A stretch of 64,000 bases of DNA from an uncultured Pseudomonadales bacterium (GTDB lineage Bacteria; Patescibacteriota; Microgenomatia; UBA1400; PJMF01), in assembly GCA_964393205.1 (NCBI GenBank), contig CAYMSV010000001.1:244581-308580 (forward strand). The letters run 5' to 3'. Within the stretch, counting starts at the first letter, position 1, and every line of letters starts with the position of its first letter. Below the pieces are notes generated by a model. That model made no database searches and was not told the DNA's origin. It saw only the letters and a program-made list of their open reading frames with translations. Shown in pieces: positions 17,860-61,456 of the stretch. A program made the translations under genes and the position numbers.

Positions 17860-18978
17860 ATGAAAATTTTGATGACTGGAGCCCATTTAACTCCAGCTCT
17901 GGCCATGATTGATTATATTCAAGCTAAACACGCAGCTGATGAAATAGTTTTTGTGGGTCGTTTATTTAGTCAAGAAAAACTTAAGCAAAAAGCAGTTGAG
18001 GCCAGTGAAATTAAAAAACGAGGGATTAAGTTTGTTCCTTTTGAAGCAGTTAAATTTGTTAATCGATCAGTCTTTGATTTCTTTTTATCTCTGTTTATGT
18101 TCCCCAAAACCGTTAAGAGAGCTAAAAATATTTTGCGAACAGAGAAAGTAGAAATTTTACTTTCTTTTGGTTCTTATCTAGCAGTACCTTTTGTTTTGGC
18201 AGCCAAAAGTTTAAAAATCCCTGTGGTTACTCACGAGCAAACCATTGCTATGGGTAAAGCCAATCAATTTATTGCCAATTTAGCAGATAAAGTAGCGATA
18301 TCTTTTCCCGAGACCAAGCAATATTTAAAAAAAGATAATTATTTTTTAACTGGTAATCCAGTTAGGCAGTCGCTATTTCAAAAGGATCTTAAAAAACCCA
18401 GTTATCTTTCAGCTTCTAATAAAAAAATTATTTTAATAATGGGTGGCAATCAGGGCTCTTTTGTTATCAATAATTTATTAAAATCGGTGATAAAGGAATT
18501 ATTAGAAGATTTTACTGTAATTCATCAATGTGGTCGAGCTAATAAGCTCAAAAACTACCCAGCAGAATTAGCTAAAATGAAATCTACCCTTCCAGCTAAT
18601 TTACAGAAAAAATATTTTATTCGTCAGTGGATGGAAGAAGAAGAACTGTTTTGGCTTTACCAGAAAGCTGATTTTGCTATTACTAGAGCTGGAGCCAATA
18701 CCGTTTTAGAAATGTGCTTGGTACCTTTGCCAGCAATCTTAATACCCTTACCCAACACCTACAATGATGAACAAACGCTTAATGCTCAAATGATGGAAAA
18801 AGCAGGTGGAGCGATTACTATTCATCAAAACAACTTGAGTCCAAAAAAATTATTAAGCGCTGTTGAATTAATGAAAAAAGAACATCAACAAATGCGTCGA
18901 AAGCTTGCTCAGGGTCAATTTTATCAACAAGCAGAACCAAAAATTTATCAACTATTAGTCGATGCCCATCAAAAATAA
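17860..18978 (+). CDS. murG: Lipid II synthase MurG (GT28), divergent N-terminal G-loop
   Basis: C-terminal ITRAGANTVLE...NDEQTLNA matches MurG. The N-terminus reads MTGAHLTPALAM where GGTGGH is expected. Confidence 0.75.
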   Translation: MKILMTGAHLTPALAMIDYIQAKHAADEIVFVGRLFSQEKLKQKAVEASEIKKRGIKFVPFEAVKFVNRSVFDFFLSLFMFPKTVKRAKNILRTEKVEILLSFGSYLAVPFVLAAKSLKIPVVTHEQTIAMGKANQFIANLADKVAISFPETKQYLKKDNYFLTGNPVRQSLFQKDLKKPSYLSASNKKIILIMGGNQGSFVINNLLKSVIKELLEDFTVIHQCGRANKLKNYPAELAKMKSTLPANLQKKYFIRQWMEEEELFWLYQKADFAITRAGANTVLEMCLVPLPAILIPLPNTYNDEQTLNAQMMEKAGGAITIHQNNLSPKKLLSAVELMKKEHQQMRRKLAQGQFYQQAEPKIYQLLVDAHQK

Positions 18979-19714
18979 GAATCTTTTTAATTATTTGTAC
19001 TTTTTTTTAGTTATATTAATAACTTCTCTGTTGTTGGTGCTAGGACTCAGGGTTGGAAAAATTACTTGTCATCATCCAAACTCTAACAATCAAGAGTTGA
19101 CGGCAGTTTGTCAGGAACTAGAGACAGCTTTTCTTGGAAAATCTCTTTTGTTTTATGATTTTGAAGGAGCTTCTATCTGGCAAGAGTTAACACAAAAAGC
19201 CGAGTATCAGGAAATATATCGGCCAGTTTCTTTAAGAAAAACGCCACCTCAAGCACTAGCTCTAAATTTAGATAGTAAAACGCCGGATTATCGCCTCATA
19301 ATAGTTGATGAAAACAGGGAACAGAAAAGTTTTATCTTGAATCAAAATAATCATTTGAAAGAAGACTACCATCAGGCTCAGATTTTTGAAATTTTTTATC
19401 AAGGGGAAGAGCAAATATTAGAAAGAAACGATCGTTATTTGCAACTAACTTTTCATCAGTTTTTTTTAAGTCTGCAAGAAAACATTGATAAATATCAAAT
19501 TCCAGCCAAAAGATTAATTTGGCAAAAAGACAATTTATTGGAATTAGACTTAGGCAAATCTTGGTTGGTAATTTTGGATAAGGAGATTGATCCAGAAGAG
19601 ACAATGCAAAAATTATCCGTAATTTTACTTGATGAGGAGGCTTTATTAGACATTCAGGGTCGGAGCTTTTTGGATATGCGCTTTCGTTTGCCAGTGATTA
19701 GAGATCAGCTTTAA
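18962..19714 (+). CDS. FtsQ/DivIB-like bitopic cell-division protein (by position and topology)
   Basis: 250 aa with one N-terminal TM helix, located between murG and ftsA. Confidence 0.5.
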   Translation: MPIKNKNLFNYLYFFLVILITSLLLVLGLRVGKITCHHPNSNNQELTAVCQELETAFLGKSLLFYDFEGASIWQELTQKAEYQEIYRPVSLRKTPPQALALNLDSKTPDYRLIIVDENREQKSFILNQNNHLKEDYHQAQIFEIFYQGEEQILERNDRYLQLTFHQFFLSLQENIDKYQIPAKRLIWQKDNLLELDLGKSWLVILDKEIDPEETMQKLSVILLDEEALLDIQGRSFLDMRFRLPVIRDQL

Positions 19715-19761: not shown

Positions 19762-21084
19762 TTGATTGATATGAGTAAAGAAAATATTATTAGCGCTATT
19801 GATTTAGGAACTGATAAGTGTGTAACTTTGATTGCAAAGCTGAATGAGCTAGATCAATTAGAAGTATTGGGTTTTAGTGTCGTTCCCTCTCGAGGTGTTA
19901 GACGCAGCACAATTGTTAATTTAGAAGAGGCCTTAACCACTGTTGGACAAAGTCTAGATGCTGCAGAAAGGATGGCAGGACTGGCTGTCAAAAATGTTGT
20001 TCTGTCTGTTTCTGGGATTTATATTCGTTATAAAAATTCAAAAGGTGTGGTGCCTGTTGCCTCTCCCAATCAAGAAATTTCCTCTTTAGATGTAGAGCGG
20101 GTTGTTGAGGCAGCGCGGGCTATTTCTTTACCAAGTGAGCGAGAGATTATCCATGTTATTCCGAAAGATTTCAAAGTTGACTCTCAAGAAGGAATAAAAG
20201 ATCCGGTAGGGATGATGGGTGTTCGTCTAGAATCAGAAACGCATATTATTACTGGACTATCTACGAGTTTGCGCAATTTTGAGAAATGTATGGGCGATTT
20301 GGGTTTAAATGTTGATGCTTTTGTTTTTAGTGCTTTGTCTGCTAGTGAGACTGCTTTGACAGAAACGGAAAAGGAGCTGGGAGCAGTTTTGGTGGATATT
20401 GGAGCTGGAACCACCAGTATTTGTGCTTTTGTTGAAGGAGTTTTAGAATTTTCAGCCGTAATTCCGGTTGGAGCAAAATATATTACTCAAGATATTGCTT
20501 CAGGTCTGCGTATTTCTTTGGAGGACGCAGAAAAATTGAAACTGTATCTTAGTGGCGATGAAGAATTAAAACTAGTTCCCTTGCCCGGAGAATCTAAAGC
20601 TGAGTTCACTAAACGCAAAAAAAAGTTTGATTTAATTGATCCAGAAAAAGTTGGGATTAATAATCGTGATCCCATTTCACGAAAATTTGTCACAGATGTG
20701 GTGATGGAGCCTAGGATTAAGGAAATCTTTAGTTTAATTTTGGAAGAATTAGCGAAAGCTGGCTTACTAGAAGGCAATCAATTACCAGCGGGCATGGTGG
20801 TAACTGGCGGCGGAGCTCTGACCTATAATTTAGTTGATGTAGCTCGCTACACCACTAAGATGTCAGTGAGATTGGCTAAGCCAAGCAACATTCTTGGTTT
20901 AACAGAAGATATTAAGCAAGTTAATTTTGCCGTAGCACTAGGTTTACTAGCCTATGCAAAACGCCAAGGCAATATTGGGCAGATTAGTCACGGTGACTTT
21001 TCTTTGAAGAAAATTTTACCTGAGGGTTTATTAAACCAGGTCGCAGAAAAAGGTAAAGCTTTGTTTAAGAAAATTTTCCCATGA
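19762..21084 (+). CDS. ftsA: Cell division protein FtsA (actin-like ATPase)
   Basis: IDLGTDKCVTLIA..., GAGTTSI, VVTGGGA motifs. Ends on a TGA stop. Confidence 0.9.
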   Translation: MIDMSKENIISAIDLGTDKCVTLIAKLNELDQLEVLGFSVVPSRGVRRSTIVNLEEALTTVGQSLDAAERMAGLAVKNVVLSVSGIYIRYKNSKGVVPVASPNQEISSLDVERVVEAARAISLPSEREIIHVIPKDFKVDSQEGIKDPVGMMGVRLESETHIITGLSTSLRNFEKCMGDLGLNVDAFVFSALSASETALTETEKELGAVLVDIGAGTTSICAFVEGVLEFSAVIPVGAKYITQDIASGLRISLEDAEKLKLYLSGDEELKLVPLPGESKAEFTKRKKKFDLIDPEKVGINNRDPISRKFVTDVVMEPRIKEIFSLILEELAKAGLLEGNQLPAGMVVTGGGALTYNLVDVARYTTKMSVRLAKPSNILGLTEDIKQVNFAVALGLLAYAKRQGNIGQISHGDFSLKKILPEGLLNQVAEKGKALFKKIFP

Positions 21085-21184: not shown

Positions 21185-22492
21185 ATGGGACTAGTTAAAC
21201 CTTCAAATACAACCTTTGCAAAAATTAAAGTAATTGGCGTTGGTGGCGGCGGTAACAATGCTATCAACTCCATGATTCTTTCAAAAGAAATTAAGGGCGT
21301 GGAATTTATTGGCATCAATACTGATGCTCAAGCTTTATTAACTGCTAAAGCTGAAACTAAATTACAAATTGGTACCAATTTTACTAGAGGTTTGGGGGCT
21401 GGAGCCGATCCCGAAGTGGGTCGAACTGCTGCTGAAGAAAGCAGAGAAAAAATTAAGGAATTACTTTTTGATACAGATATGGTTTTTATTACAGCTGGTA
21501 TGGGTGGCGGTACTGGTACTGGCGCCTCACCAGTGATCGCGGAAATTGCTAGAGAGGTTGGTGCTTTGACTGTTTCAGTAGTGACCAAGCCTTTTGCCTT
21601 TGAGGGTATACGCAGAATGCAAACTGCTGAAGAAGGCATCGAATATTTATCAGATACAGTTGATACTTTAATTGTTATTCCCAACCAGCGCTTACTAGAA
21701 GTAGTTGATAAAAAAATGACCTTTATTGATGCTTTTCGTCTAGCTGATAATGTATTGGGCCAAGGCGTAAAAGGTATTTCTGATCTCATTACCATAGCTG
21801 GAATGATCAACGTCGACTTTGCCGATGTTAAAACAATCATGACTGATTCTGGAACGGCCTTGATGGGTATTGGTGAGGCTTCTGGAGAAGATCGTGCAGT
21901 TATGGCTGCCAGAATGGCTGTTTCTTCACCACTACTGGAAGTTTCCATATCTGGAGCTAAAGGTATTCTTTATAATGTTACTGGTGGTCCAGATATGACT
22001 ATGACAGAAGTTTCTGATGCCTCTGCAATAATTGCTGATAGTGCCGATACCGATGCCGATATTATTTTTGGAGCTACTATTGACGAAGATATGGGAGCAA
22101 AAATCAAAATTAGCGTTATAGCAACCGGCTTTAGCGATAACTATAGCGGTGTTGGTCCTCGAGCTTTATTTGGAGCTTATGGTCGAGAATCTAAGAGAAA
22201 AATGACTCATACCCCTACTTCGACTGTAACCAGCATAGAAGAAGAGTCCCCAGAGGAAGACAAAATTGATCGAGCTCCAGAGGGATATACTCAACCTCAA
22301 ACTATGGCTGATCGCAAACCAAAAAAAGAGGAAAAAGTTGAAAGTAACAATCCTTTTGTTCGTAGCGCTTTGTTTAATCTAAAAAAAGATTCTAAAAAGA
22401 AGCAAGAAGATAAATCGGACAAAAAAGAGGATGCAGAGAATAGTGATGAATTTAGTGAGTTTGAAGTGCCTGCTTTTTTAAGACAAAAATAA
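21185..22492 (+). CDS. ftsZ: Cell division GTPase FtsZ
   Basis: [11 protein letters not shown] tubulin signature, followed by a disordered acidic C-terminal tail. Confidence 0.95.
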
Positions 22493-22550
22493 GCTAAGTG
22501 GCAAAAGTTTTTTACAATTTTGGATTTAAATAAAATAGCATTGATTTTCT

Positions 22551-22559
22551 GCTATAATG
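22551..22559 (+). promoter_or_regulatory. Extended -10 promoter element (TGCTATAAT) for the ileS leader
   Basis: Matches TGnTATAAT. No good -35 at 17-nt spacing. Lies about 220 nt upstream of the ileS ATG. Confidence 0.4.
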
Positions 22560-22565
22560 TTCTTG

Positions 22566-22761
22566 TTAATAAAAACCGCTTGAGCTAATAATCAGTTAGC
22601 GAGGTGCTTGAAGAAATTATCCTATTATTAATTAGGATAAAAATAGAACAGGCCGAGTAGACCGCGTAAAAGTCAAAATTGAGGAGCAATAGGGCTGGTA
22701 CCTTTGCTGTAAAGCAAGCCTTATTAAAATCGTTGAAGAACGATTTTAGTGAGGTTTTTTT
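22566..22761 (+). promoter_or_regulatory. Putative T-box leader (Ile specifier) with antiterminator/terminator switch
   Basis: T-box-like AGGGCUGGUACC at 22691-22702 with a UGGU bulge; helix UUGCU-GUAA-AGCAA; downstream GCCUU is shared with a 16-bp terminator stem. Candidate specifier hairpin GCUAA-UAAUCAG-UUAGC at 22584-22600 (AUC+A). Confidence 0.6.
22719..22761 (+). terminator. Strong intrinsic terminator/attenuator 17 nt upstream of the ileS ATG
   Basis: CCUUAUUAAAAUCGUU-GAAG-AACGAUUUUAGUGAGG (16 bp, 2 GU pairs) followed by UUUUUUU. Confidence 0.75.
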
Positions 22762-22777
22762 AAAAATAAAAGGAAAA

Positions 22778-25702
22778 ATGTCTAAAAAAAATATTGACTT
22801 TCGACAAACACCTGATTTGGTTGAATTGGAAAAAGAAATTTTGCAATTTTGGGAAAAAGAAGAAATTTTTGAGCAATCATTAAAAAAAAGAGAAGGAGCA
22901 GAAAACTTTTCTTTTTATGATGGCCCCCCTTTTGCTACTGGTCTACCCCATTACGGCCATTTAATGCAATCGGTTATTAAAGATTTAATACCTCGTTACC
23001 AAACTATGAGAGGTAAATATGTGAGGCGAGTTTGGGGTTGGGATTGTCATGGTTTACCAATTGAGAATTTACTGGAAAAGGAACTAGATTTAGCAGATAA
23101 ACAGGAAATTGAAAAATTTGGAGTTGATGCTTTTAATCAAGCCTGTGAAGCACGAGTTTTAACCTATGCTCAGGATTGGGAAAAAACTATTAGAAGAATT
23201 GGTCGTTTTATAGACATGAAAAACGCTTATAAAACCATGGATAAAGAATACATGGAAAGTGTGTGGTGGGTCTTTAAAGAACTTTACCAAAAGGGTTTAA
23301 TTTATCAGAGTCACAAAGCCATGCATATTTGTCCACGTTGCAGCACGCCCTTGTCTAATTTTGAGGTTACTCAAGGTTATCAAGAAATCAAAGACTTAGC
23401 GGTGACAACTAAATTCAAACTTCTTGGCGAAGCAGAAAACACCTATTTCTTGTCTTGGACGACTACTGCTTGGACTTTGCCAGGCAATATGTTTTTAGCA
23501 GTTAATCCAAAGTTAGACTATGTTCTTCTTGAGTTAAAAGAAAAAAACGAAAAGTATTATTTGGCCAAAAGTCGCGTTGAGGAGGTTTTTGCCGATCAAA
23601 AATACCAAATTTTAAAAACAGTTAAGGGTCAAGAATTAGTCGGTTTGAATTATGAGCCAGTTTTTCCTTACTTTAAGCAATTAAAAGAAGATTCAACCAT
23701 ACCAGATCAAGCTAGAGAAAAAATATTTACAGTACAGGCTGGAGAATTTGTTAATTTAGAAGAAGGTACTGGCATTGTGCATATTGCTCCGGCATTTGGT
23801 GAAGATGATTATCAATTGGGAGAAAGTTTATTAAAGTTTTCACGACTAAGTACTCTGGTGAAAAATAAACTTTTTATTCAACACGTTGACATGAATGGTC
23901 GTTTCACTGCTGAAATAAAAGATTTTGCGGGTTTAGAGGTCAAACCTAAAAATGACCATCAGGCTACAGATGTGGCCATCATTCGCTATCTAGCTAAAGA
24001 AAACTTACTATTTGCTAAAAAGCAATTTAGTCATAGTTATCCTCATTGCTGGCGTTGTGATACACCTCTACTAAATTATGCCACTAGTTCTTGGTTTGTT
24101 GAGGTGACTGCCTTTAAAGATCAATTATTAGAAAACAATCAAGCCGTTAATTGGCAGCCAAATCACATTAAAGATGGTCGATTTGGTAATTGGTTGGCAG
24201 ATGCTAGAGATTGGGCAATTTCACGCAATCGGTTTTGGGGCACTCCTCTGCCTCTTTGGCAAAGTGAAGATGGTGATCTAATTTGTGTGGGCAGCAGTGC
24301 TGAACTAGAAGAATTAACTGGTCAAAAAATCAATAATTTACATAAACAATTCGTTGATGAGTTGGTGATTGAAAAAAATGGTAAAAGCTATAAGCATTTA
24401 CCAGAGGTATTAGATTGTTGGTTTGAATCTGGTTCTATGCCCTATGCTCAATTTAATTATCCACATAGTAATCAGCAATTGTTTTCACAAAATTTCCCAG
24501 CCAACTTTATTTCTGAAGGACAAGATCAGACTCGGGGTTGGTTTTATACTCTCCACGTTCTAGCTACAGCTTTAACCATGAGCAGTGATAAATTTAAGTC
24601 AAGTTTAGACAAGCCGCCTAGCAGTGCTTTTGAAAACGTGATGTGTACTGGTTTGATTATGGCTAGTGATGGTAAAAAAATGAGCAAACGGCTCAAGAAC
24701 TATCCAGAGCCAGAAGCAATTTTAAATAAATATGGCGCGGACAGTTTGCGACTCTATTTAATGTCATCGGCGGTGGTTAAAGCAGAAACACTAAATTTTG
24801 ATGGAAAAGAAGTTAGTGATTTGCGCAGAAGAGTCTTTTTAATCTGGTGGAATGTTTTAGCTTTTTATCAAACTTTTGCCAATAAAGAAGCAGGCTTGTT
24901 AGATTTAAACAAAGAAATTGCTTTAGAAAATGTTTTAGATCGCTGGCTCTTGTCTCGTTTAGCTAATTTACAAAAACAGCTAGTTAAATATTTAGAAAAA
25001 TTTGATGTAATGCGAGCCAGCCGTTTGTTGGCACCTTTTATCAGTGATTTTTCAACCTGGTATTTACGCTTGTCTAGGGATCGTTTAAAAGCTGACGACA
25101 ATCAAGAAAGTAGTCAAGTTTTTGCTAGTGTTTTATATAATTCTGCTCAGCTATTTGCACCAATTGTGCCATTTTTTGCTGAACTCATTCATCAACAGTT
25201 TGTTAATCAGCCAAGCTCAATTCATTTGACCGACTATCCCCAACTTCCTCAATCTTGGATTCAAGATGAATTGGAAGAGCAAATGGAGGAGTTGCGTCAA
25301 CTAGTAGAACTAGGCCACGCTCAGCGAAAACAAGCTCAAGTTTCACTGCGTCAGCCTCTAGCATCAGTAACTTTTAACAAAAAAGCTAGCTTTAGCGATG
25401 ATCAAGAATTACTAGAAATTATAAAACAGGAGTTAAATGTTAAAGAAGTGAACTGGGGTCAGGCAAAAGCAGCAGACTTCGAAGCTGAATTTGATCTTGA
25501 ATTAACAGCAGATCTGGTTGCCGAGGGTGAAGCGCGTAAAGTCATTCGCCGTATTCAAACTTGGCGTAAAGATGCTGGTTTAGATCTTAATCAAGAGGTG
25601 CCAGTTTATTTAAAAACTTGGCCAAACCAATTTACTAAAATGATCGAGGAAAAAACCAACAGTCAACTAATTAGAGCTCAAATTGAAGGTCTTAAAGATT
25701 AG
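22778..25702 (+). CDS. ileS: Isoleucyl-tRNA synthetase
   Basis: HYGH motif (PHYGHLMQ) and KMSKR motif (KMSKRLKNYP). Start taken at ATG 22778 with the AAAGGA RBS; the track's TTG at 22679 would read through the leader and terminator. Confidence 0.9.
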   Translation: MSKKNIDFRQTPDLVELEKEILQFWEKEEIFEQSLKKREGAENFSFYDGPPFATGLPHYGHLMQSVIKDLIPRYQTMRGKYVRRVWGWDCHGLPIENLLEKELDLADKQEIEKFGVDAFNQACEARVLTYAQDWEKTIRRIGRFIDMKNAYKTMDKEYMESVWWVFKELYQKGLIYQSHKAMHICPRCSTPLSNFEVTQGYQEIKDLAVTTKFKLLGEAENTYFLSWTTTAWTLPGNMFLAVNPKLDYVLLELKEKNEKYYLAKSRVEEVFADQKYQILKTVKGQELVGLNYEPVFPYFKQLKEDSTIPDQAREKIFTVQAGEFVNLEEGTGIVHIAPAFGEDDYQLGESLLKFSRLSTLVKNKLFIQHVDMNGRFTAEIKDFAGLEVKPKNDHQATDVAIIRYLAKENLLFAKKQFSHSYPHCWRCDTPLLNYATSSWFVEVTAFKDQLLENNQAVNWQPNHIKDGRFGNWLADARDWAISRNRFWGTPLPLWQSEDGDLICVGSSAELEELTGQKINNLHKQFVDELVIEKNGKSYKHLPEVLDCWFESGSMPYAQFNYPHSNQQLFSQNFPANFISEGQDQTRGWFYTLHVLATALTMSSDKFKSSLDKPPSSAFENVMCTGLIMASDGKKMSKRLKNYPEPEAILNKYGADSLRLYLMSSAVVKAETLNFDGKEVSDLRRRVFLIWWNVLAFYQTFANKEAGLLDLNKEIALENVLDRWLLSRLANLQKQLVKYLEKFDVMRASRLLAPFISDFSTWYLRLSRDRLKADDNQESSQVFASVLYNSAQLFAPIVPFFAELIHQQFVNQPSSIHLTDYPQLPQSWIQDELEEQMEELRQLVELGHAQRKQAQVSLRQPLASVTFNKKASFSDDQELLEIIKQELNVKEVNWGQAKAADFEAEFDLELTADLVAEGEARKVIRRIQTWRKDAGLDLNQEVPVYLKTWPNQFTKMIEEKTNSQLIRAQIEGLKD

Positions 25703-33985: not shown

Positions 33986-35395
33986 TTAGGCTAGCATAGA
34001 GCTTAAATAATTATCAAGTTCAGTAATGGCGATTCGCTCTTGTTGACTACTGTCTCGATGACGAACTGTAACGGCTTTGTCTTCAAGAGTGTCAAAATCA
34101 ATAGTAATACAAAAAGGCGTACCAATCTCATCTTGAGATAAATAACGTTTACCAATGTTGCCTCTTTCGTCCCAAGTGGCTCTAAATTTTTGATTCAGCT
34201 GCTCATAAACTTCTCTAGCTTTTTTCACTAATTCCTCTTTATTTTTTAAGAGTGGAAAAACGGCCAATTGATAAGGGGCCAATTTGGGTTTAAAAGCCAT
34301 GACAGTGCGCTCTTTGTCTGAATCTTCTCTGTAGGCGTCACAAAGCAGCATTAAAAATAAACGATTAATACCAGCTGCCGGCTCAATAACGTGAGGCAAA
34401 AACTTTTTATTAGTTTGCGGGTCGATATATTCTAGCGATTGTTTAGAAAACTCTTGCTGTTGCTTGAGGTCGTAATCACCTCGATAAGCGATGCCCCAGA
34501 GCTCTTTCCAGCCAAAAGGATAGCGATATTCTAAATCATAGGTTTCTTGACTATAGTGACTGCGTTCTTTATCAGTGTGACGACGCCAACGTAGATTTTC
34601 TTCTCTAATACCTAAGACTTTTGTAACAAAGTCCCACATTTGATTCTGCCAGTCCTTAAATAATTTCTGCCAATCTTCCTTTTCAGGGTCAAAAAAATAC
34701 TCAATCTCACCTTGTTCAAACTCTAAAGTACGAAAAACAAATTGTCCGGTAGTAATTTCGTTGCGAAAGCTCTTACCAATTTGACCAACACCAAAAGGCA
34801 ATTTGTTTCTAGTGCTATTAAGAATTTGTTTAAAATTAGAAAAAATACCTTGAGCTGTTTCTCCGCGCAAATAAACTTGGTTTTTTTTATCAGCTAAAAC
34901 ACCAATAGCAGTTTCAAACAAAATATTAAAGTCTTGGGCTTCAGTAAGAGGATTACCATCAGGAGATTTAATTTGATGTTTATTAATCAAATCATCCAGT
35001 TCTGCTGTTGATAGATTAGCGATAATAACTTCTCCCTGTTTTTCTGGATTTTTGGCAAAATAGTCTTCGATTAAACTGTCAGCTCGATAACGCTTGTGAG
35101 TTACTTTATCTTCAACCAAGGGGTCGGTAAAAGAGTTGACGTGACCAGATGCTACCCAAGTTTGAGGGTGTAAAATGATTTGGCTATCTAGACCAAGCAT
35201 GTCTTCACGGCGTCGGATAAAAAAATCCCACCACAAGCTTTTGATATTTAACAAAAGTTCAGTCCCCAATGGCCCGTAGTCATAAGAATTGGCTAAACCA
35301 CCATAAATTTCACTAGTTTGATAAACAAAACCTCGTCTTTTAGCTAAAGAACTAATAGTTTCGAGACTAACTTGTTGATTTTCTTCAGTTTGCAT
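33986..35395 (-). CDS. glyQS: Glycyl-tRNA synthetase, alpha2-dimer (GlyQS) type
   Basis: N-terminal ...RRGFVYQTSEIYGGLANSYDYGPLGTEL... class II aaRS. Confidence 0.85.
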   Translation of the reverse strand: MQTEENQQVSLETISSLAKRRGFVYQTSEIYGGLANSYDYGPLGTELLLNIKSLWWDFFIRRREDMLGLDSQIILHPQTWVASGHVNSFTDPLVEDKVTHKRYRADSLIEDYFAKNPEKQGEVIIANLSTAELDDLINKHQIKSPDGNPLTEAQDFNILFETAIGVLADKKNQVYLRGETAQGIFSNFKQILNSTRNKLPFGVGQIGKSFRNEITTGQFVFRTLEFEQGEIEYFFDPEKEDWQKLFKDWQNQMWDFVTKVLGIREENLRWRRHTDKERSHYSQETYDLEYRYPFGWKELWGIAYRGDYDLKQQQEFSKQSLEYIDPQTNKKFLPHVIEPAAGINRLFLMLLCDAYREDSDKERTVMAFKPKLAPYQLAVFPLLKNKEELVKKAREVYEQLNQKFRATWDERGNIGKRYLSQDEIGTPFCITIDFDTLEDKAVTVRHRDSSQQERIAITELDNYLSSMLA

Positions 35396-35439: not shown

Positions 35440-36006
35440 CTAGTTTTGACTTTGGGTATTTAAAAAATCAAAGCTTTTCATCTTTTTTTCACTAATTTCA
35501 GCTACATAATTTTGAATACTTTGGTGTTTAGTGTCTTTAATATCTTGATAACCTAGAAGTTGTAATAATTGGTTGAGGAGTTTTTTAATTTTTGCAGCCT
35601 GATTGTCTTCACTTAAGACTAATTTTTCAATTTTTTTAGCTAATTCAAAACTACCCTCGTCAATAAAGTTTTCCACAAAGAGGCGATCAAAAATTTCTAA
35701 AATTTGTTGAATGTGGCTAATCTTTTTAAGAGCTAATTCTTGAGGAAGATTTTGATAAATTTGGCTAGTATCAAAAAGTAGACGACTTTGAGTGAGTAAA
35801 GGTAAACTTTTAGTTCTAATACAAAAAGCTTGAATGAGATTGCCCGGTTCGAGATTAGCTCTGTTAGAAGAATTGAGGCGGCGCGCCCCTTTAGCCAGTA
35901 CTACCAGTTTTCCTTGATCTTTAGTTAAGAGAGTCAGTAGGCGGTCGGTTTCACCCATAGCGCGCCGCTTAAGAACAATGGCGTGGCTTGAAAATGAGCG
36001 AGACAT
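35440..36006 (-). CDS. recO: DNA repair protein RecO (short form)
   Basis: N-terminal OB-fold sequence (HAIVLKRRAMGETDRLLTLLTKDQGKL); only 188 aa. Confidence 0.65.
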   Translation of the reverse strand: MSRSFSSHAIVLKRRAMGETDRLLTLLTKDQGKLVVLAKGARRLNSSNRANLEPGNLIQAFCIRTKSLPLLTQSRLLFDTSQIYQNLPQELALKKISHIQQILEIFDRLFVENFIDEGSFELAKKIEKLVLSEDNQAAKIKKLLNQLLQLLGYQDIKDTKHQSIQNYVAEISEKKMKSFDFLNTQSQN

Positions 36007-45711: not shown

Positions 45712-47341
45712 GATAATGTTGATGATTGATGGCGAGTATTGCTCCAGCTAGGGCCCAATAAATGAAGGCTACTTTGGAAGAGGCAAAGACATCAATGTAA
45801 AGAGCATTGACCAAGAGGCCAATGGTAGCTGCCAAAAAGGCTAAATTAAGGTTTTTGAGCCAAGGACTGGCAGATTTATTTTTCTTGATTTGATAAAAGA
45901 TTACCCAAAAAATACCATAGAAACTAATAAAACCTAGCAAACCAGTTTCACCCAAGGTACGCAAGAAATTATTATCAGTGCTTTCGGCTTCAGTGAAGTG
46001 ATAAAAATCTTTTTTATTGAGGGTGGCATAGGCACTACCCACGACAGGATTGGCAACAAAACCATCGATGGCATTGGGCCAAAGCTCATCGAGGCGAATA
46101 GCCAAGGACAAACCATATTTCATGGCATTGGGTGACCAAGTGCGCTCTTTTTCTACCTCAACCATTTCGCCAAATTCATTCTCCTCTTTTACTATGTCTG
46201 GGACATCGACATACACATCAACCGGTCTAGTGGTGGTGGGTCGCTCATCAGTTTTGACTAAGGTGTTTTCATCGACAGCAATGCCATCATCCGGCGGTCG
46301 ACCTCGGCGTTGAATATAAGTGGCTAACTTTTCATATTTTTCTTCAAAAATTTCCATTTGAGTTTCGCTAAATTCTTCAGCATCTTCATAAACTAGATAA
46401 GCTTCTGGATAAGCTCGCAAGATTTGCACAAAACGGTCTTGCATATCGCCACCAAAGACGAAAATCATTAGGATTAATAAAATGCTAAAAGCAGTACCTC
46501 GACGCAGAAGTGCCCATAAGCGTTTAATAAATTTTTGCTCTTGCCAAGCTAACATAATGATAGCGGCAGCCATGGCAGCAAGATAAGCTGCAAAAGAAAT
46601 TCGTGAAGCGGAAACAACCAAAAGCCATAGACCAAGCAAATGCAAAACTTTAAATAAACCCTTACCCCATTTGTTTTGGCTTTTCATACCAAGAACATAA
46701 AAAATTGGCAAAACCATGACCAAAAAGGCAGCCAAATCATAATGACCGGCAAAGGTAGATTGGACTCGAGCGTGTTCGGTTAAATATAAAACCATACCCT
46801 TGCTAAATTCTCGATTCATGGTCGAAAAAACTGGCCAATAAAGATATTTTTGACCATACCCGTAAACTGTGACTAAAACCAAAGTGAGGGCTAAGCTGGC
46901 AAGGACTAGGCGCACATCTTTTTCTGAGCGAACGCTAGAGTAAAGAATAAATAGCAAAGAAAAATATTCAATATAGCGCAGCAGGTGTAAAAATGATTTA
47001 GCAAAGTGAATGCTTTCCAAAGGAATGGTGCGAATGATAAATAAACCTGAGATAATCGATAAAAAAGCAATTGCAATGTAGGCAAAAATCCATTTAGCAG
47101 CTGGATTTTGCCAGTCAACTTTTTTGCGCTTTACTTGAATTAGATAAAACAGAGACACTAGGGCTACCAAGATATCTTCTAAGCGAACCCGGACAATGTA
47201 GCCAGGAATGGCCTCAAAAAGTGGCACTTTTGGATAGAGGGGAATAAAAATTAACAGAAATAAGCTAGCAAATAACATTAAGCGATTGTCAACAAAATTC
47301 AGTAATTTTTTAGCAAAAGTTGATTTTTTAGCCATATTCAA
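45680..47341 (-). CDS. O-antigen ligase/polymerase family (Wzy_C) membrane protein with a large periplasmic loop
   Basis: SASRISFAAYL and DNNFLRTLGETGLLG motifs. Confidence 0.6.
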   Translation of the reverse strand: MNMAKKSTFAKKLLNFVDNRLMLFASLFLLIFIPLYPKVPLFEAIPGYIVRVRLEDILVALVSLFYLIQVKRKKVDWQNPAAKWIFAYIAIAFLSIISGLFIIRTIPLESIHFAKSFLHLLRYIEYFSLLFILYSSVRSEKDVRLVLASLALTLVLVTVYGYGQKYLYWPVFSTMNREFSKGMVLYLTEHARVQSTFAGHYDLAAFLVMVLPIFYVLGMKSQNKWGKGLFKVLHLLGLWLLVVSASRISFAAYLAAMAAAIIMLAWQEQKFIKRLWALLRRGTAFSILLILMIFVFGGDMQDRFVQILRAYPEAYLVYEDAEEFSETQMEIFEEKYEKLATYIQRRGRPPDDGIAVDENTLVKTDERPTTTRPVDVYVDVPDIVKEENEFGEMVEVEKERTWSPNAMKYGLSLAIRLDELWPNAIDGFVANPVVGSAYATLNKKDFYHFTEAESTDNNFLRTLGETGLLGFISFYGIFWVIFYQIKKNKSASPWLKNLNLAFLAATIGLLVNALYIDVFASSKVAFIYWALAGAILAINHQHYHDKKSKKAKK

Positions 47342-47344
47342 AAT

Positions 47345-48358
47345 TCATTTAATAATTGCTAAAGCTTCACGATAGATTGTCGCTTGTCTCTCTTTACCAG
47401 TCAAGCGATAAATTAAATAACGCCAGAATGCACCAGCTTTAAGAATCAAGCGCAGTAGCGATTGTTGCCAGGCTGGAAAATGCTTTTTCCAAATATATAA
47501 ATAACTTTTAAACTCACCAAGAATAGCATTTTTACTAGAAGAGCTAGCGCTACCCAAGTGAACAATTTTGGCGCCGGGATGAATGGCAATGTCAAAATGA
47601 TGGTTTTTAGCTCGTAGACAAAATTCTTGATCCTCACCGTACATAAAGATATTTTTGTCTAGATAGCCAATGCGATCGATGACGCTTTTTTTAATCAGCA
47701 TGGCTGTACCAGCTACCCAATCTTTATGGATGAGAGCTGTTTTTTGATTTTTTCGATCAAGAAAGAGTTTTTGTAAGGGGCGTTGATTACGACCTGTGTG
47801 TTGAGTAGAAGGCAAAAAGCGACCCAGCACCGGAATGTCATCTAAAAAAAACATTTGGTTAAAAACGGCACAGAGTGATAATTGTGAACCACCCTGAGGT
47901 TGAAGGGAGCCATCAGGATTGAGTAAAGTGGGGCTTAAAATACCCAGATAATCAACGATTTTTTCACTATCTTGAGTGGTAGCAGTGGCTAGTTGATCAG
48001 GATGATTAATAAAGGTTTTGACTAAAGTTTCTAGAGTGCCCTGTTGGACAATGGTGTCAGAGTTAAGCAACATCAAATATTCACCCTTGGCATTTTTGAG
48101 CGCTTGGTTATTAGCTTTAGCAAAGCCCAAGTTTTGTTTATTGGCAATGAGTTGGTAATTGCGAAATTTTGCCTTGTTAAAAAACTTCTTCACGGCATCT
48201 AAGCTGCCATCTTGGCTATTGTTATCAACCACATAGATTTCGCTATCTTTTTTTAGTAAGTCGCTACTTTTGATATCAGCTAACAAGCTCTCCAATGTCT
48301 GGAGGGTTAATTCTTGAGTGTTATAAGAAACAACAATGACGGATAAAAGCTTTTGCAT
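47345..48358 (-). CDS. Glycosyltransferase family 2
   Basis: LSVIVVSYN...YVVDNNSQDGS GT2 N-terminus. Confidence 0.75.
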   Translation of the reverse strand: MQKLLSVIVVSYNTQELTLQTLESLLADIKSSDLLKKDSEIYVVDNNSQDGSLDAVKKFFNKAKFRNYQLIANKQNLGFAKANNQALKNAKGEYLMLLNSDTIVQQGTLETLVKTFINHPDQLATATTQDSEKIVDYLGILSPTLLNPDGSLQPQGGSQLSLCAVFNQMFFLDDIPVLGRFLPSTQHTGRNQRPLQKLFLDRKNQKTALIHKDWVAGTAMLIKKSVIDRIGYLDKNIFMYGEDQEFCLRAKNHHFDIAIHPGAKIVHLGSASSSSKNAILGEFKSYLYIWKKHFPAWQQSLLRLILKAGAFWRYLIYRLTGKERQATIYREALAIIK

Positions 48359-58620: not shown

Positions 58621-59556
58621 ATGAAATTAATTATCATGATTCCCTGCTTTAATGAAGAGAAAACTCTTCCTTTGGTAATTAACTCAATTCCTAAAAAAAT
58701 AGTTGGCATTGATAAAATTGAAACATTAATCGTGGATGATGGTTCTAGTGATCAAACAGTGCTTGTCGCTAAAAAACTCAAAGTCAACCACATCATTCAA
58801 CACAAAAATAATAAGGGTTTAGCTAGAGCTTTTGAAACTGGTTTAAACGCCTGTTTGGATAAAGGCGCAGATATTATTGTCAATACAGATGGAGACAATC
58901 AATATCCTCAACAAGATATAACTCGTTTAATAAAACCGATTTTAGATGGCAGTGCTGAAATTGTTATTGCTGATCGCCAAACAGATAAGATTAGTCACTT
59001 TTCTCCTCTTAAAAAGTTTTTGCAAAAATTTGGTAGCTGGTGGGTACAGTTTTTATCTGGTACAAAGATTCCTGATGCAGTGTCAGGTTTTCGAGCCTAT
59101 AGCCGTGAAGCAGCACAACAGCTAAATGTAGTTACCGATTTTTCATATGTAATTGAAACCATCATTCAAGCTAGTAAGAAAAAAATTGCAATTACTTCAG
59201 TTCCTGTTATTACTAATCCAAAAACCAGAGAATCTAGATTATTCAATAGCATGTGGGGACATGTTAAAAAATCTGGAGCAACCATGGTAAGAGTATTTGC
59301 CATGTATGAGCCGCTCAAAACTTTTAGTTTTTTGGCACTAGTGATGTTATTGCCAGGATTATTCTTAGCAGGTCGATTTTTATATTTTTATTTTATTGAA
59401 GGAACTGGTACTGGTCACCTACAATCTTTGTTGCTGTCGGCTGTGTTAATTATTGTGGGTTTTCAAATATTCTTAATTGGTTTAGTGGCAGATTTGATTG
59501 CAAGTAATAGGAAATTAATAGAAAAAATAATTAAGAAAACTAAAAGTGCATCCTAA
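58621..59556 (+). CDS. GT2 polyprenyl-phosphate glycosyltransferase (GtrB/ArnC/DPM1-like) with two C-terminal TM helices
   Basis: IMIPCFNEE, IVDDGSSD, NTDGDNQYP motifs plus a C-terminal TM pair. Confidence 0.75.
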   Translation: MKLIIMIPCFNEEKTLPLVINSIPKKIVGIDKIETLIVDDGSSDQTVLVAKKLKVNHIIQHKNNKGLARAFETGLNACLDKGADIIVNTDGDNQYPQQDITRLIKPILDGSAEIVIADRQTDKISHFSPLKKFLQKFGSWWVQFLSGTKIPDAVSGFRAYSREAAQQLNVVTDFSYVIETIIQASKKKIAITSVPVITNPKTRESRLFNSMWGHVKKSGATMVRVFAMYEPLKTFSFLALVMLLPGLFLAGRFLYFYFIEGTGTGHLQSLLLSAVLIIVGFQIFLIGLVADLIASNRKLIEKIIKKTKSAS

Positions 59557-60616
59557 TTCTCGTCAAGTTTTATTTGTAACAAGAAAGTATCCTCCTGCTG
59601 TGGGCGGTATGGAAAAAATGCATTTCGAATTATCTAAATCATTGGAAAAAGTACGCTCAACAAAAATTATTGCATATGGTGGCAGTCAAAAATTTTTACC
59701 AGTTATTTTACCAATTTTGTTTTTCCGAACAATTTTGTTTATTTTTAAATATAAGTCAGCAGATATTATTTTAGGTGATGCTTTACTTAGTATTTTTATT
59801 CCTATTTTAAAATTGTTTGGTAAGAACAAAATTATGGTAATCGCTCACGGTTTAGATATTACCTATAATCGTTTTTTTTATCAACAAATAGTCATACCTA
59901 ATCTGAAGAGGGCCAACATTGTTGTTAGTATTAGTAATGCTACTAAAAAGGAACTCATAAAAAGAGGAATTTCAGAAACACAAGTTAATGTGATACCCGT
60001 TGGTATTAATATTAGTAATTATCAAAAAGAGATTAATTTAAAACTAGTAAAGAATGAATTAGCAAAAAAAATTAATTTAAATTTATCTAATAAAAAATTG
60101 TTATTGACGGTTGGTAGATTAGTTGAAAGGAAGGGACATGCTTGGTTTATAAACCAAGTTATGCCACTTCTAGATGATGATTTTATTTATTTAATTATCG
60201 GAGAAGGTGAACAAAGAAAAAATATTGAAGAATTGATTGCTCACAAAAAATTACAAAAAAGAGTTTTTTTGCTTGGGAAAGTTAATGAGAACTATAAGAT
60301 TGAATTATTGAGATTAGCTGATGTTTTTATCATGCCCAATATTGAAGTTAAAAATGACCCTGAGGGTTTTGGTATTGTGGCTTTAGAAGCAGCAGCAGCT
60401 GGTTTGCCAATTATAGCAACCAAACTGGAAGGTATAAAAGATTCAATTGCAAACAATTTGAGTGGTTATTTAATAAAGTATATTAACGCCGACATATTTG
60501 TTAAAAAAATAATTAAAGCGATAAAAAACAAAAAATTAAAAAATTCTTCAATAAAATATGCTTATCAATTTTCATGGGATCTTATAATTAATAATTACTT
60601 AAAAGTGCTAGTGTAA
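59546..60616 (+). CDS. Glycosyltransferase family 4 (GT-B)
   Basis: C-terminal EGFGIVALEAAAAGLP motif. Confidence 0.75.
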   Translation: MHPNSRQVLFVTRKYPPAVGGMEKMHFELSKSLEKVRSTKIIAYGGSQKFLPVILPILFFRTILFIFKYKSADIILGDALLSIFIPILKLFGKNKIMVIAHGLDITYNRFFYQQIVIPNLKRANIVVSISNATKKELIKRGISETQVNVIPVGINISNYQKEINLKLVKNELAKKINLNLSNKKLLLTVGRLVERKGHAWFINQVMPLLDDDFIYLIIGEGEQRKNIEELIAHKKLQKRVFLLGKVNENYKIELLRLADVFIMPNIEVKNDPEGFGIVALEAAAAGLPIIATKLEGIKDSIANNLSGYLIKYINADIFVKKIIKAIKNKKLKNSSIKYAYQFSWDLIINNYLKVLV

Positions 60617-60625
60617 CTATAAAAC

Positions 60626-61456
60626 ATGAAAGCTTCTGTTTGTATTACTAGATATTGTGAGTCAGATTCTATATTAATTAGATGTCTTAACAGTATTTTT
60701 AATCAAAAAAGCATTTTTTTAGAAGTTGTAGTAATTGATCAAAAACCAACAAAAAAAATTGAAAATTTTTGTTTAAAAAACAAAAACAAATTACCAATTA
60801 TTTATAGGAAAACAAAACCATTGGGTTTGTCTGTTGCAAGAAATGTTGGCATCACTGAATCAAGTAATGATTTTATTTTATATCTAGATGCTGACGCTAC
60901 GGCAGAAGAAAATTGGGCTTATTTTTTAACAAAAACTCTCAATAGAGATAGAGTTGCAATAGCAGGAAGTAGAATACTTCCTTTGTGGGGGGAACGAGAA
61001 CCTATTTTTTTAAAATCGAAAGTAATTTGGGAACAATATTCAATGCTTGATTTTGGTGAATTAGAAAAAGAAACCACTAAAATAATTGGTGCTGGATTTG
61101 GTATTGATAGAAAAAAAACGAAAAATCTAGTATTTAATACTAGGCTTGGAAGATTTAATGGAAATCTTTTAGGCGGTGAAGAAACAGAATTCTGTAAGAA
61201 GATGAGAAACAAGGGATTTTTAATTTTCTATAATGGAAAATCATTGGTTTATCATCATGTATCTAAAGAAAGAACTACCTTAAATTGGCTAATTAAAAGA
61301 CTTTTTGCGGCAGGAAGAAGCCGTTTAAATCAAGGGGGGTATCCAAAATCCACTCATAAAAAGAATGTTTATGACCTTGTTTTTATGCCTCTAATTGTTG
61401 TTCCCTATATTTGTGGTTTAATATTTCAAAAACTAATTACTATCAATAATGATTAA
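60626..61456 (+). CDS. Glycosyltransferase family 2
   Basis: GT2 fold (VVVIDQ, YLDADA). Confidence 0.65.
   Translation: MKASVCITRYCESDSILIRCLNSIFNQKSIFLEVVVIDQKPTKKIENFCLKNKNKLPIIYRKTKPLGLSVARNVGITESSNDFILYLDADATAEENWAYFLTKTLNRDRVAIAGSRILPLWGEREPIFLKSKVIWEQYSMLDFGELEKETTKIIGAGFGIDRKKTKNLVFNTRLGRFNGNLLGGEETEFCKKMRNKGFLIFYNGKSLVYHHVSKERTTLNWLIKRLFAAGRSRLNQGGYPKSTHKKNVYDLVFMPLIVVPYICGLIFQKLITINND

Follow-up and report, generated by a model that had tools for sequence, protein, structure and literature searches.

A probable isoleucine-specific T-box leader with an ultrashort Stem I upstream of ileS in a CPR/Patescibacteria genome

The stretch of DNA analysed here (64 kb, hereafter the window) contains a leader at 22573-22761, situated between a promoter-like -10 box and ileS and on the same (+) strand as ileS, that is very probably a tRNA-Ile-sensing T-box riboswitch for this gene, acting by transcription attenuation. 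Its anatomy, conservation, covariation, mutually exclusive folds, relative fold stability and homology to T-box leaders are matters of direct observation. The initial annotation had proposed an Ile-specific T-box combining an ultrashort Stem I with a terminator/antiterminator platform, a proposal that anatomy, covariation and homology to an independent model of related leaders now support. Its conjecture of a CPR/Patescibacteria-like organism is also borne out, the organism being Paceibacterota-like. Beside textbook T-boxes the leader is minimal: the distal platform of Stem I is missing, and so, in the clade of the window, is the Stem III helix.

The upstream neighbours of the leader are the ftsA-ftsZ operon. 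With the ftsZ stop at 22492 and the ileS ATG at 22778, the intergenic gap measures 285 nt, as first annotated. The extended -10 element reported within it is present, although its coordinates had been placed one base too high, at 22551-22559. The string TTTTCTGYTATAAT is unchanged throughout a 7-sequence alignment of close relatives, and TG-n-TATAAT is also found in the related locus L005, ~20 nt upstream of its leader. The transcript probably starts near 22565-22567. Among PDB entries, the encoded enzyme matches cytoplasmic IleRS and IleRS2 best (650-757 bits), with the type-1 S. aureus IleRS at 295 bits. The features of the locus are as follows.

22550-22558, + strand: extended -10 promoter element TGCTATAAT, read from the sequence
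22770-22774, + strand: Shine-Dalgarno sequence AAGGA of ileS, downstream of the terminator and not sequestered
22778-25702, + strand: ileS, type-2 (eukaryote-like) isoleucyl-tRNA synthetase, 974 aa, with Pfam domains tRNA-synt_1, Anticodon_1 and DUF5915

Evidence that the leader belongs to a family comes from R1, a covariance model trained on 26 ileS leaders of the Saccharibacteria type and on none from the clade of the window. Across the 64 kb, R1 gives a single strong match, full-length, at 22573-22724 (37.2 bits, E ~1.5e-8, a rough value, as are all R1 E-values, owing to a shortened calibration). The window and 67 of 80 related CPR loci each contain exactly one match, upstream of ileS and on its strand. 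Pair counts were taken from a covariance-model alignment of these 68 leaders, as plain MAFFT alignments slip by 1 nt at the S-turn and between Stem I variants of 4 and 5 bp. Pairing holds in 96.1% of its cells, compared with 66.3% for shuffles (0/500) and 27-50% when partners are slid. The covariation sought in homologous ileS leaders is present, with double-sided changes in 29 of 31 pairs, and the AGGGCUGGUACC element is clearly conserved in related ileS leaders.

This conservation is observed at several evolutionary distances. Six close relatives, with IleRS identities of 74-93%, show hardly any variation over the full length of the leader and its -10 box; compensatory changes are seen among them in Stem I, in the C-stem of the K-turn, in IIB and in the terminator. 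Eight helices or motifs keep their order and spacing across lineages with IleRS only 38-60% identical. Run on 13 leaders of the Paceibacteria type, RNAalifold arrives independently at the K-turn stem, Stems I and II, IIA and the core of A1.

The 5' half of the leader is built around Stem I, which presents the specifier in an apical loop.

22575-22605, + strand: Stem I, ultrashort, a 5-bp helix (22584-88/22596-600) on a K-turn-like base
22575-77 with 22603-05, + strand: K-turn-like base of Stem I, consisting of a C-stem (ACC with GGU), a 4-nt bulge at 22578-81 and tandem GA at 22582-83 and 22601-02
22589-22595, + strand: apical specifier loop UAAUCAG, 7 nt
22591-22594, + strand: specifier AUC (Ile codon, C in the third position) with the 3' purine A22594

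The hairpin GCUAA-UAAUCAG-UUAGC described in the initial annotation is confirmed at 22584-22600; AUC occupies 22591-22593, and GA flanks the hairpin on each side. Stem I pairs are 100% canonical across the 68 leaders and all four covary. The C-stem ACC/GGU of the window becomes GCC/GGC in L008 and L009, a compensatory change. AUC occupies loop positions 3-5 in every one of the 65 leaders with a complete Stem I, is followed by A in 60 of them, and agrees with the amino acid of the downstream IleRS gene. The K-turn of the window leader carries a bulge of 4 nt, and conservation of its 5' G does not extend across the family. With only a 5-bp hairpin and a 7-nt loop, Stem I of the window lacks the long class I Stem I with its specifier internal loop, AG bulge and distal interdigitated T-loop platform (IDTM), to which the tRNA elbow binds. 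The resemblance drawn earlier to the ultrashort Stem I of actinobacterial ileS T-boxes holds: the specifier lies in an apical loop above a K-turn-like base, and there is no IDTM.

Stem I is followed by Stem II and by a IIA/B pseudoknot, elements common to all T-box classes except glycine.

22606-22653, + strand: Stem II, lower helix GCUUG 22606-10/CAGGC 22649-53, upper helix 22617-24/22633-40
22611-16 opposite 22641-48, + strand: S-turn internal loop of Stem II, AAGAAA opposite AAAUAGAA
A22614, A22615, A22645, G22646 and A22647, + strand: purine string of the S-turn
22654-22674, + strand: Stem IIA/B pseudoknot, IIA CGA 22654-56/GCG 22664-66, IIB GAC 22660-62/GUC 22672-74
22662-22669, + strand: F-box-like CCGCGUAA (CGUAA)
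22675-22690, + strand: linker with the discriminator purines RAG (GAG 22681-83) and AA (22688-89)

The lower helix of Stem II is 96.6% paired in the 68 leaders and covaries at five of its five pairs. Within the S-turn, GAA opposite UAGA is invariant, and A22615, U22644, A22645 and A22647 are unchanged in 47 leaders. IIA is 98.9% paired in the same 68-leader alignment. IIB, which lies outside the covariance model, is 80.8% paired, compared with 54.7% in shuffles and 21-31% with slid partners, and accounts for 55 double-change cells; its GAC/GUC pairing in the window becomes GGC/GCC in L028.

In the linker the RAG purines are invariant among aligned leaders, while the Stem III helix is absent from the window, with only GC (22686-87) in its place. 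T-box discriminators otherwise include a Stem III set between conserved purines, 5'-RRRxG-Stem III-AA-3'. The R1 alignment assigns 2 nt to the 22-position Stem III block. Across the family, Stem III is missing in 16 of the 68 members and present in the other 52, and the members without it keep the purines that flank it. A mini-hairpin, AUUG/CAAU (22678-81/22687-90, 4 bp), was considered as a vestigial Stem III and rejected, since it would bury RAG in a loop.

The 3' half of the leader contains two structures that compete for one strand.

22688-22725, + strand: antiterminator, comprising A1, a 7-nt bulge and A2
22691-95/22718-22, + strand: A1, AGGGC with GCCUU, extendable to 8 bp (22688-95/22718-25)
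22696-22702, + strand: T-box bulge UGGUACC, 7 nt, between A1 and A2
22704-08/22713-17, + strand: A2, UUGCU with AGCAA, closed by a GUAA loop
22716-22761, + strand: intrinsic terminator, a 19-bp hairpin (22716-34/22739-57, loop GAAG) followed by U7 at 22755-61

The T-box core-like element AGGGCUGGUACC is located at 22691-22702 and the small helix UUGCU-GUAA-AGCAA at 22704-22717, both as first described, and GCCUU (22718-22722) is complementary to AGGGC (22691-22695), as required of the antiterminator proposed there. A1 is 97.7% and A2 95% paired in the 68 leaders, with 11 of 12 pairs covarying. The bulge reads UGGUACC in 58 of 66 leaders and starts with UGGU in 62; UGGC and UGGA variants are found in L039, L050, L049 and L056. 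A single instance of the pattern GG(N0-2)TGGNACC is present on the + strand of the window. The sequence flanking the bulge departs from the consensus (AGGGC-UGGUACC-UUUGC). At the A2 pair beside the bulge, one of two arrangements stands in place of the canonical G.U: U22704-A22717, which leaves an additional U22703 bulged out, or a reversed U22703.G22718, which costs the C22695-G22718 pair. An A2-closing G.U wobble, the steric sensor of the aminoacyl group in T-boxes, is present in 25 of the 68 family members.

The terminator hairpin, initially given as 16 bp at 22719-22754 followed by U7, is likewise present and is extended by RNAfold to 19 bp. Because its 5' arm contains the A1 3' strand, terminator and antiterminator exclude each other, and folding agrees: 22718-25 pairs with either 22688-95 or 22748-55. 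The antiterminator (-12.2 kcal/mol) is the MFE fold for a transcript ending at 22726, before the terminator 3' arm, and the complete terminator reaches -22.7 kcal/mol. The leader as a whole folds with z = -5.1 against dinucleotide shuffles, and the terminator is kept with compensatory changes in close relatives. These sequence features of the leader are far beyond chance.

The nature of the competing helix also bears on the level of control. An ultrashort Stem I, Stem II and IIA/B together form the architecture of the translational actinobacterial ileS T-boxes, and the window leader could by analogy be a translational T-box in which alternative helices control access to the Shine-Dalgarno sequence. 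We consider this very unlikely. The helix competing with A1 is a 19-bp hairpin running directly into U7, a classic intrinsic terminator, and a U-tract follows the competing hairpin in nearly all of 53 leaders examined. The AAGGA sequence (22770-74), moreover, lies 9 nt past the U tract and is left without a partner in the MFE structure.

Scoring against Rfam gives a different impression from R1. A significant match of the leader to the T-box model RF00230, as the initial reading would suggest, is not obtained: the score is 12.8 bits (E 1.1) compared with a gathering score of 93, and at the gathering threshold RF00230 has no match in the window or in 17 related loci. Three tRNAs are all that a screen of the window against every Rfam family returns at the gathering threshold, and the 17 related loci give no match. 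Low-scoring matches to tsr26, rli56, psRNA14, a leu/phe leader and miRNAs were dismissed, having picked up only the terminator hairpin. The low RF00230 score results from two large deletions, in Stem I and Stem III. When the window is aligned to RF00230, 6 nt stand for 75 model positions of Stem I and 2 nt for 17 of Stem III; the K-turn consensus falls on the Stem I base and the other elements are placed as expected. In L020, 76 Stem I positions are deleted. RF00230 nevertheless matches the relatives L020, L071, L027 and L061, scoring between 30.8 and 41.8 bits (E-values from 6e-6 to 4e-3) and covering the coordinates that R1 also finds. Since the independent R1 model links both, the window is tied to these RF00230-matching CPR leaders. 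The RF00230 miss on the window is a limit of the Rfam model and not evidence against the RNA.

That miss, together with an AT-rich region that readily yields hairpins and U runs, is what would favour reading the gap as no riboswitch at all, with coincidental or vestigial motifs. The region would then be a structured spacer carrying a constitutive terminator or insulator after ftsA-ftsZ and a promoter, or the relic of a decayed T-box. However, the terminator lies downstream of a conserved promoter and thus cannot simply end the ftsZ transcript. The eight ordered elements, the compensatory changes and the invariant AUC argue in the same direction, and a relic would not keep 96% pairing. This reading is accordingly given hardly any weight.

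Sherwood and colleagues reportedly described actinobacterial ileS T-boxes with an ultrashort Stem I in 2015. These class II leaders (M. tuberculosis, M. smegmatis, N. farcinica), represented by structure 6UFG and related structures (PMC7583486, PMC11297988), are one of the closest comparisons. The regulated gene is the same, ileS encoding the type-2 enzyme. Like the window leader, they carry AUC followed by A in the apical loop of a short Stem I without a distal platform, and a Stem II S-turn with GAA opposite (G)UAGA and a string of five purines (in N. farcinica G37 A38 A39 / G67..A69 G70 A71; PMC7583486). They also share RAG 16-17 nt after the F-box and a 7-nt UGGNACC bulge between A1 and A2. 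The F-box of the IIA/B pseudoknot reads CGUAA in the window, CGUCA in M. tuberculosis and CCGUCA in N. farcinica. The spacing of codon, S-turn and F-box is within 1-2 nt of the N. farcinica numbering, as compared by published motif positions and not by alignment. Despite these similarities, the output differs, the window having an intrinsic terminator where the actinobacterial ileS leaders sequester the Shine-Dalgarno sequence. RAG and the bulge are 15 nt apart in the window and 31 nt apart in M. tuberculosis (G94 to U125), Stem III being absent in the window's clade. The phyla also differ, class II ileS T-boxes belonging to Actinobacteria and the window to CPR/Patescibacteria; TBDB sought short-Stem-I T-boxes only in Actinobacteria.

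Like the window leader, class I leaders (RF00230; B. subtilis tyrS and ileS) set a terminator against an antiterminator over the A1 3' strand. In contrast, the ~75 Stem I positions that hold their specifier side-bulge context, AG bulge and distal loop/IDTM are reduced to a 7-nt loop in the window, Stem III is missing, and the T-box sequence reads AGGGCUGGUACCUUUGC in place of the canonical AGGGUGGNACCGCG. The glyQS T-box, an earlier "minimal" T-box, is similarly compact (~190 nt), works by transcription attenuation and follows the same discriminator logic. It drops Stem II and IIA/B and keeps the long Stem I elbow platform and Stem III, whereas the window leader does the reverse.

These reductions bear on function, which cannot be taken for granted here because the IDTM and Stem III, both deemed necessary in PMC7583486, are missing. 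According to that work, transcriptional T-boxes generally need a long Stem I/IDTM for fast tRNA capture; an antiterminator without Stem III cannot bind tRNA appreciably; Stem III is indispensable for binding of the tRNA 3' end; and K-turn-binding proteins may aid suboptimal K-turns (PMC7583486). The leader could then be a T-box by descent that is unable to work alone, either needing a helper (an L7Ae-family K-turn-binding protein, another CPR-specific factor, or a slow or pausing RNA polymerase) or sensing only the abundance of tRNA-Ile through the anticodon. The absence of both the IDTM, which transcriptional T-boxes reportedly cannot do without, and the Stem III helix, reported as essential for binding the tRNA 3' end, is consistent with such dependence, as is the 4-nt bulge of a suboptimal K-turn that a protein might assist. 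Nonetheless we judge it improbable. The full NCCA-sensing core (UGGU bulge, RAG/AA, A1/A2) is under strong purifying selection, which would be pointless if the 3' end were unread; actinobacterial ileS T-boxes bind tRNA without an IDTM, and no candidate helper was identified.

For the preferred reading, a self-sufficient T-box acting by attenuation, we infer from the established T-box mechanism that tRNA is bound, that its charging is sensed and how readthrough results. Transcription would start just downstream of the extended -10 box, and the nascent RNA would fold a decoding module consisting of Stem I presenting AUC-A, Stem II and the IIA/B pseudoknot. This module is predicted to pair with the GAU anticodon of tRNA-Ile, with the S-turn purine string of Stem II clamping the codon-anticodon helix. 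The A1/UGGUACC/A2 antiterminator would then form by default. If the tRNA is uncharged, its 3'-ACCA could pair with the UGGU of the bulge and stack on the helix, so that the A1 3' strand (GCCUU...) would be held and RNA polymerase would read through into ileS. With charged tRNA, or with none, the stabler 19-bp terminator would capture the A1 3' strand, and transcription would stop at U7.

The identity of the partner tRNA enters this scheme as an assumption. No tRNA-Ile gene was found in the window, which has only Asp, Gly and Thr tRNAs, or in 60 related loci, and the GAU anticodon and A73 discriminator are therefore assumed. The last base of UGGN is expected to complement the discriminator base of the cognate tRNA, and UGGU fits A73, the usual one in bacterial tRNA-Ile. 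Other candidates for T-box control in the window were rejected. A second R1 match at 47299-47394 on the - strand (17.5 bits) covers Stem I only and lies inside a coding region; TGGTACC at 12832 falls inside a signal peptidase gene; and the GlyRS-like gene at 33986-35395 on the - strand has an upstream gap of only 44 nt.

Extended to the family, the interpretation becomes considerably less certain, and we see it as having an even chance of being correct. It holds that CPR carry phylum-wide, previously unannotated minimal transcriptional ileS T-boxes, which would decide co-transcriptionally through anticodon and NCCA contacts only, with no elbow platform and, in several clades including that of the window, no Stem III, against the view that both are required. 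In most Saccharibacteria, on the same proposal, a terminator formed from the 3' half of Stem III would enclose an intact A1/bulge/A2, so that Stem III, and not A1, would compete with termination.

The literature search found no report of a native T-box in CPR/Patescibacteria, and a 2024 perspective describes gene regulation in Patescibacteria as virtually unknown. Judged from its sequence, the leader offers a concrete proposal for a cis-regulatory mechanism in this group. It also exposes an annotation blind spot, as none of the 18 sequences tested, from the window and 17 related loci, reaches the RF00230 gathering score. The ileS leaders of CPR and Actinobacteria share their architecture and both precede a type-2 IleRS. 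This prompts one to ask whether Saccharibacteria and the Actinobacteria that host them exchanged gene and leader together, and which T-box class came first, the latter an open question according to PMC7583486. The family constitutes a natural experiment on the T-box minimum, combining an ultrashort Stem I with a terminator and, in 16 of 68 members, dispensing with Stem III. If such leaders work, models of kinetic control and discriminator architecture would need revising, and at ~190 nt a functional leader would lend itself well, as a minimal scaffold, to structural studies and engineering. For the organisms themselves, isoleucine sensing would be relevant to a life as epibionts that need amino acids from their hosts.

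The ileS leader (22573-22761, forward strand) lies in a cell-division gene cluster, in the following setting:

19762-21084: ftsA, part of the cell-division gene cluster
21185-22492: ftsZ, part of the same cluster
Between ftsZ and ileS: intergenic gap of 285 nt
22778-25702: ileS, downstream of the 285-nt gap
3' of ileS: ftsW/rodA, followed by rplU

The window DNA is low in GC (~36%) and comes from a CPR/Patescibacteria bacterium. The nearest relatives of its IleRS (74-93% identity) come from MAGs labelled Candidatus Paceibacterota, with remoter ones in Parcubacteria, Moraniibacteria and many Saccharibacteria. The enzyme is a type-2, eukaryote-like IleRS; it carries a C-terminal DUF5915 domain, and in the PDB it matches cytoplasmic IleRS and IleRS2 best. 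Some record taxonomy labels look unreliable. Locus L007 (CP011212.1) is titled 'candidate division TM6', yet its IleRS is 60% identical to that of the window and its leader is Paceibacteria-type, while many TPA assemblies (e.g. L001, L002, L009) are titled 'uncultured Pseudomonadales' or 'Gammaproteobacteria' and encode IleRS up to 93% identical to that of the CPR window. Elsewhere in the window, a 250-aa ORF adjoining ftsA upstream (18962-19714, forward strand) matches no Pfam family at E<=1e-3 and, from its position, could encode a divergent FtsQ/DivIB-like division protein. Positions 60001-64000 have a GC content of 24%, against ~36% elsewhere, and could represent a surface-polysaccharide island that was acquired horizontally or evolves fast; GT2 and GT4 glycosyltransferases are encoded at 58621-61456, and a 631-aa ORF without a Pfam match at 61449-63344.

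All sequence features listed for the ileS leader in the initial annotation are present. This holds without change for the T-box-like core AGGGCUGGUACC, for the UUGCU-GUAA-AGCAA helix and for the GCCUU strand common to antiterminator and terminator; the extended -10 element TGCTATAAT also exists, at 22550-22558, one base lower than originally placed. The Rfam T-box model RF00230 gives no match on the window at its gathering score (93 bits), and a permissive search reaches 12.8 bits (E ~1). Taken alone, this would speak against a T-box on the initial annotation's own terms. The RF00230 alignment places the K-turn, Stem II with GAA...AGUA and IIA with CGUUA on matching window residues, and its AGuG, AA and GGGUGGUACC-GCG columns likewise fall on corresponding residues. 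The low score is due to the cost of deleting 75 distal Stem I positions and 17 Stem III positions. Permissive RF00230 matches were obtained in related loci found via IleRS (L020, 41.8 bits, E 6e-6, again with distal Stem I deleted; L071, 38.5; L027, 37.0; L061, 30.8). These coincide exactly with matches of R1, a covariance model of CPR ileS leaders, and no other Rfam family rivals them there. Together with the R1 match of the window, they link the window by homology, via the CPR ileS leaders, to the T-box.

Comparative evidence came from 80 related loci, collected in one genome-collection scan with the window IleRS. The regular expression GG(N)TGGNACC occurs ~80-130 nt upstream of ileS in about half of these loci, spanning several CPR classes. 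In 52 loci UGGNACC is preceded, at a distance of 95-140 nt, by a hairpin of 4-6 bp that is flanked by GA...GA and capped by a 7-nt NNAUCNN loop. In the six closest relatives the leader is nearly invariant, including the -10 box. Compensatory changes among them turn GCUAA/UUAGC into GUCAG/CUGAC in Stem I, ACC/GGU into GCC/GGC in the K-turn C-stem and GAC/GUC into GGC/GCC in the pseudoknot; such changes are seen in the terminator too. To avoid circularity, R1 was trained on 26 Saccharibacteria-type leaders only; neither the window's clade nor any Paceibacteria-type sequence entered it. It matches the window at full length (22573-22724, 37.2 bits, E ~1.5e-8, R1 E-values being rough), the sole strong match in 64 kb. 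Over 81 sources it has a single match in the window and a single one in each of 67 of the 80 related loci, and every one of these precedes ileS on the same strand; the 13 loci lacking a match mostly have a truncated upstream region.

Across the resulting 68-sequence alignment, standard pairs fill 96.1% of cells, compared with 66.3% after column shuffling (0/500 shuffles attain the observed value), and two-sided changes affect 29 of the 31 pairs (538 cells). The bulge begins UGGU in 62/66 leaders. The alignment behind most of these counts was fitted to R1. Three observations argue against a model-fitting artefact. Sliding the partners by 1-3 columns lowers pairing to 27-50%. The IIB pseudoknot helix, which is absent from R1 and to which the alignment was thus not fitted, is 80.8% paired (54.7% shuffled, 21-31% slid), with 55 double-change cells. 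RNAalifold, applied to 13 Paceibacteria-type leaders, which are of the window's own kind and played no part in building R1, arrives independently at the K-turn stem, Stem I, both Stem II parts, IIA and the A1 core. Anatomy, comparative data and the homology link support the Ile-specific T-box reading of the initial annotation.

R1 also gives a weak partial match at 47299-47394 on the reverse strand (17.5 bits, E ~0.003, equally rough). It comprises a Stem I-like hairpin only (GCGA-CAAUCUA-UCGU, AUC in the loop) and sits without a T-box core in the 3' end of a coding region (47345-48358, reverse strand); being partial, intragenic and coreless, it is judged a chance match. A second aaRS gene (33986-35395, reverse strand; class II, HGTP anticodon domain, GlyRS-like) is preceded by a recO-like gene (35440-36006, reverse strand) across a gap of just 44 nt. 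It has no T-box-like leader, leaving ileS as the sole predicted T-box-controlled gene in 64 kb.

The leader folds far more stably than shuffled sequence (z = -5.1). Antiterminator and terminator compete for the A1 3' strand, 22718-25, as the initial annotation had proposed. This strand pairs with 22688-95 in the antiterminator (A1 plus A2, -12.2 kcal/mol), which is the MFE fold of a transcript ending at 22726, or with 22748-55 within the terminator (-22.7 kcal/mol). The terminator comprises a 19-bp hairpin (22716-34 with 22739-57) and, behind it, U7 at 22755-61. In computed folds the terminator prevails once its 3' arm is transcribed. The SD (22770-74) lies unpaired past the U tract. This competition, together with the free SD, points to classic T-box transcription attenuation as the most likely mode of action, in which uncharged tRNA-Ile, held at AUC and pairing through its 3'-ACCA end with UGGU of the bulge, would stabilise the antiterminator and let RNA polymerase read through into ileS. 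Beyond the observed anatomy, conservation and fold competition, tRNA binding and charge sensing would follow the established T-box mechanism. No tRNA-Ile gene was found in the window or among 60 related loci searched.

The CPR leaders closely resemble actinobacterial ileS T-boxes when compared by published motif positions (PMC7583486, PMC11297988) rather than by sequence alignment. The specifier is AUC, C third, in 65/65 complete Stem I loops, followed by A in 60/65. As in the solved structures, an S-turn is formed, GAA opposite (G/A)UAGA, and the five-purine string is conserved. The F-box reads CGUAA, compared with CGUCA in Mtb and CCGUCA in N. farcinica, and is followed by RAG after 16 nt (17 nt in Mtb); codon, S-turn and F-box spacing deviate from N. 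farcinica numbering by 1-2 nt or less.

The family departs from known T-boxes in several respects. According to a 2020 review (PMC7583486), transcriptional T-boxes generally need a long Stem I with an elbow-binding IDTM, and an ultrashort Stem I is a trait of translational T-boxes, a difference attributed to the kinetic demands of co-transcriptional sensing. Unlike the former, the CPR family joins an ultrashort Stem I to an intrinsic terminator. The same review counts Stem III as integral to the discriminator and indispensable. Its helix is missing in the window's clade and in 16/68 family members overall (in the CPR leader family alignment, the window clade, L005, L006, L016, L025, L029, L034, L058 and L072), representing at least three separate lineages, with at most 2 nt in its place and the flanking RAG and AA purines retained. 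The searchable open literature yielded no account of a natural T-box without Stem III. A1 of the window leader is extended to 8 bp and may, speculatively, replace Stem III as a stacking platform. The window T-box sequence also has an additional C ahead of UGG, and its A2 closing pair differs from the canonical G.U.

Further variation was observed across the family. In ~33 Saccharibacteria-type loci (e.g. L063:2860-2945; also L038, L039, L045, L049, L056, L060, L067, L075 and others), the segment between the A1 3' strand and the U tract can pair with the Stem III loop and 3' strand (10-16 bp, -9 to -21 kcal/mol, shuffle-based z of -3 to -8), and Stem III itself is weaker (-6 to -8 kcal/mol). 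Since the segment pairs more strongly with the Stem III loop and 3' strand, the terminator would enclose A1, bulge and A2 as an intact module, and its competitor in most Saccharibacteria ileS T-boxes would be Stem III rather than A1. This complementarity is absent in the canonical-terminator leaders L004, L007, L017, L024, L035, L037 and L074; we met no description of such a topology in the literature. In ~14 loci (L049:2339-2899, L045:2414-2968, L024, L035, L037, L044, L050, L062, L067, L070, L074, L077, L079, L080), a variable small gene stands between the T-box and the downstream ileS, the two being 500-900 nt apart (in L035 and L077 up to ~1,300 nt), so that the leader apparently controls a two-gene operon. 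The intervening gene encodes a DNA-3-methyladenine glycosylase (Tag, PF03352) in L049 and L045, and a conserved ~140-aa protein starting MTDYT(I/V) in Moraniibacteria-type loci. Bulge variants include UGGCACC (L039, L050), UGGAACC (L049, L056) and UGGUAAC (L045, L067); UGGC and UGGA would predict the tRNA-Ile discriminators G73 and U73, respectively, in those genomes, or a mismatch.

We found no report of a T-box in Patescibacteria, the candidate phyla radiation, Saccharibacteria or TM7 in the searchable open literature or Rfam release 15. In a 2024 Patescibacteria perspective, riboswitches come up solely as a potential synthetic tool, and TBDB sought short-Stem-I T-boxes in Actinobacteria only, relying otherwise on RF00230, which at threshold misses the CPR ileS leaders (the window and 17 related loci). 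Judged by homology and conserved anatomy, the leader in the window is a true T-box, and in this analysis it is the founding example of an apparently CPR-wide family of ileS leaders. It is best classed among the transcriptional T-boxes, as a form whose Stem I is ultrashort and which, in this clade, lacks Stem III.
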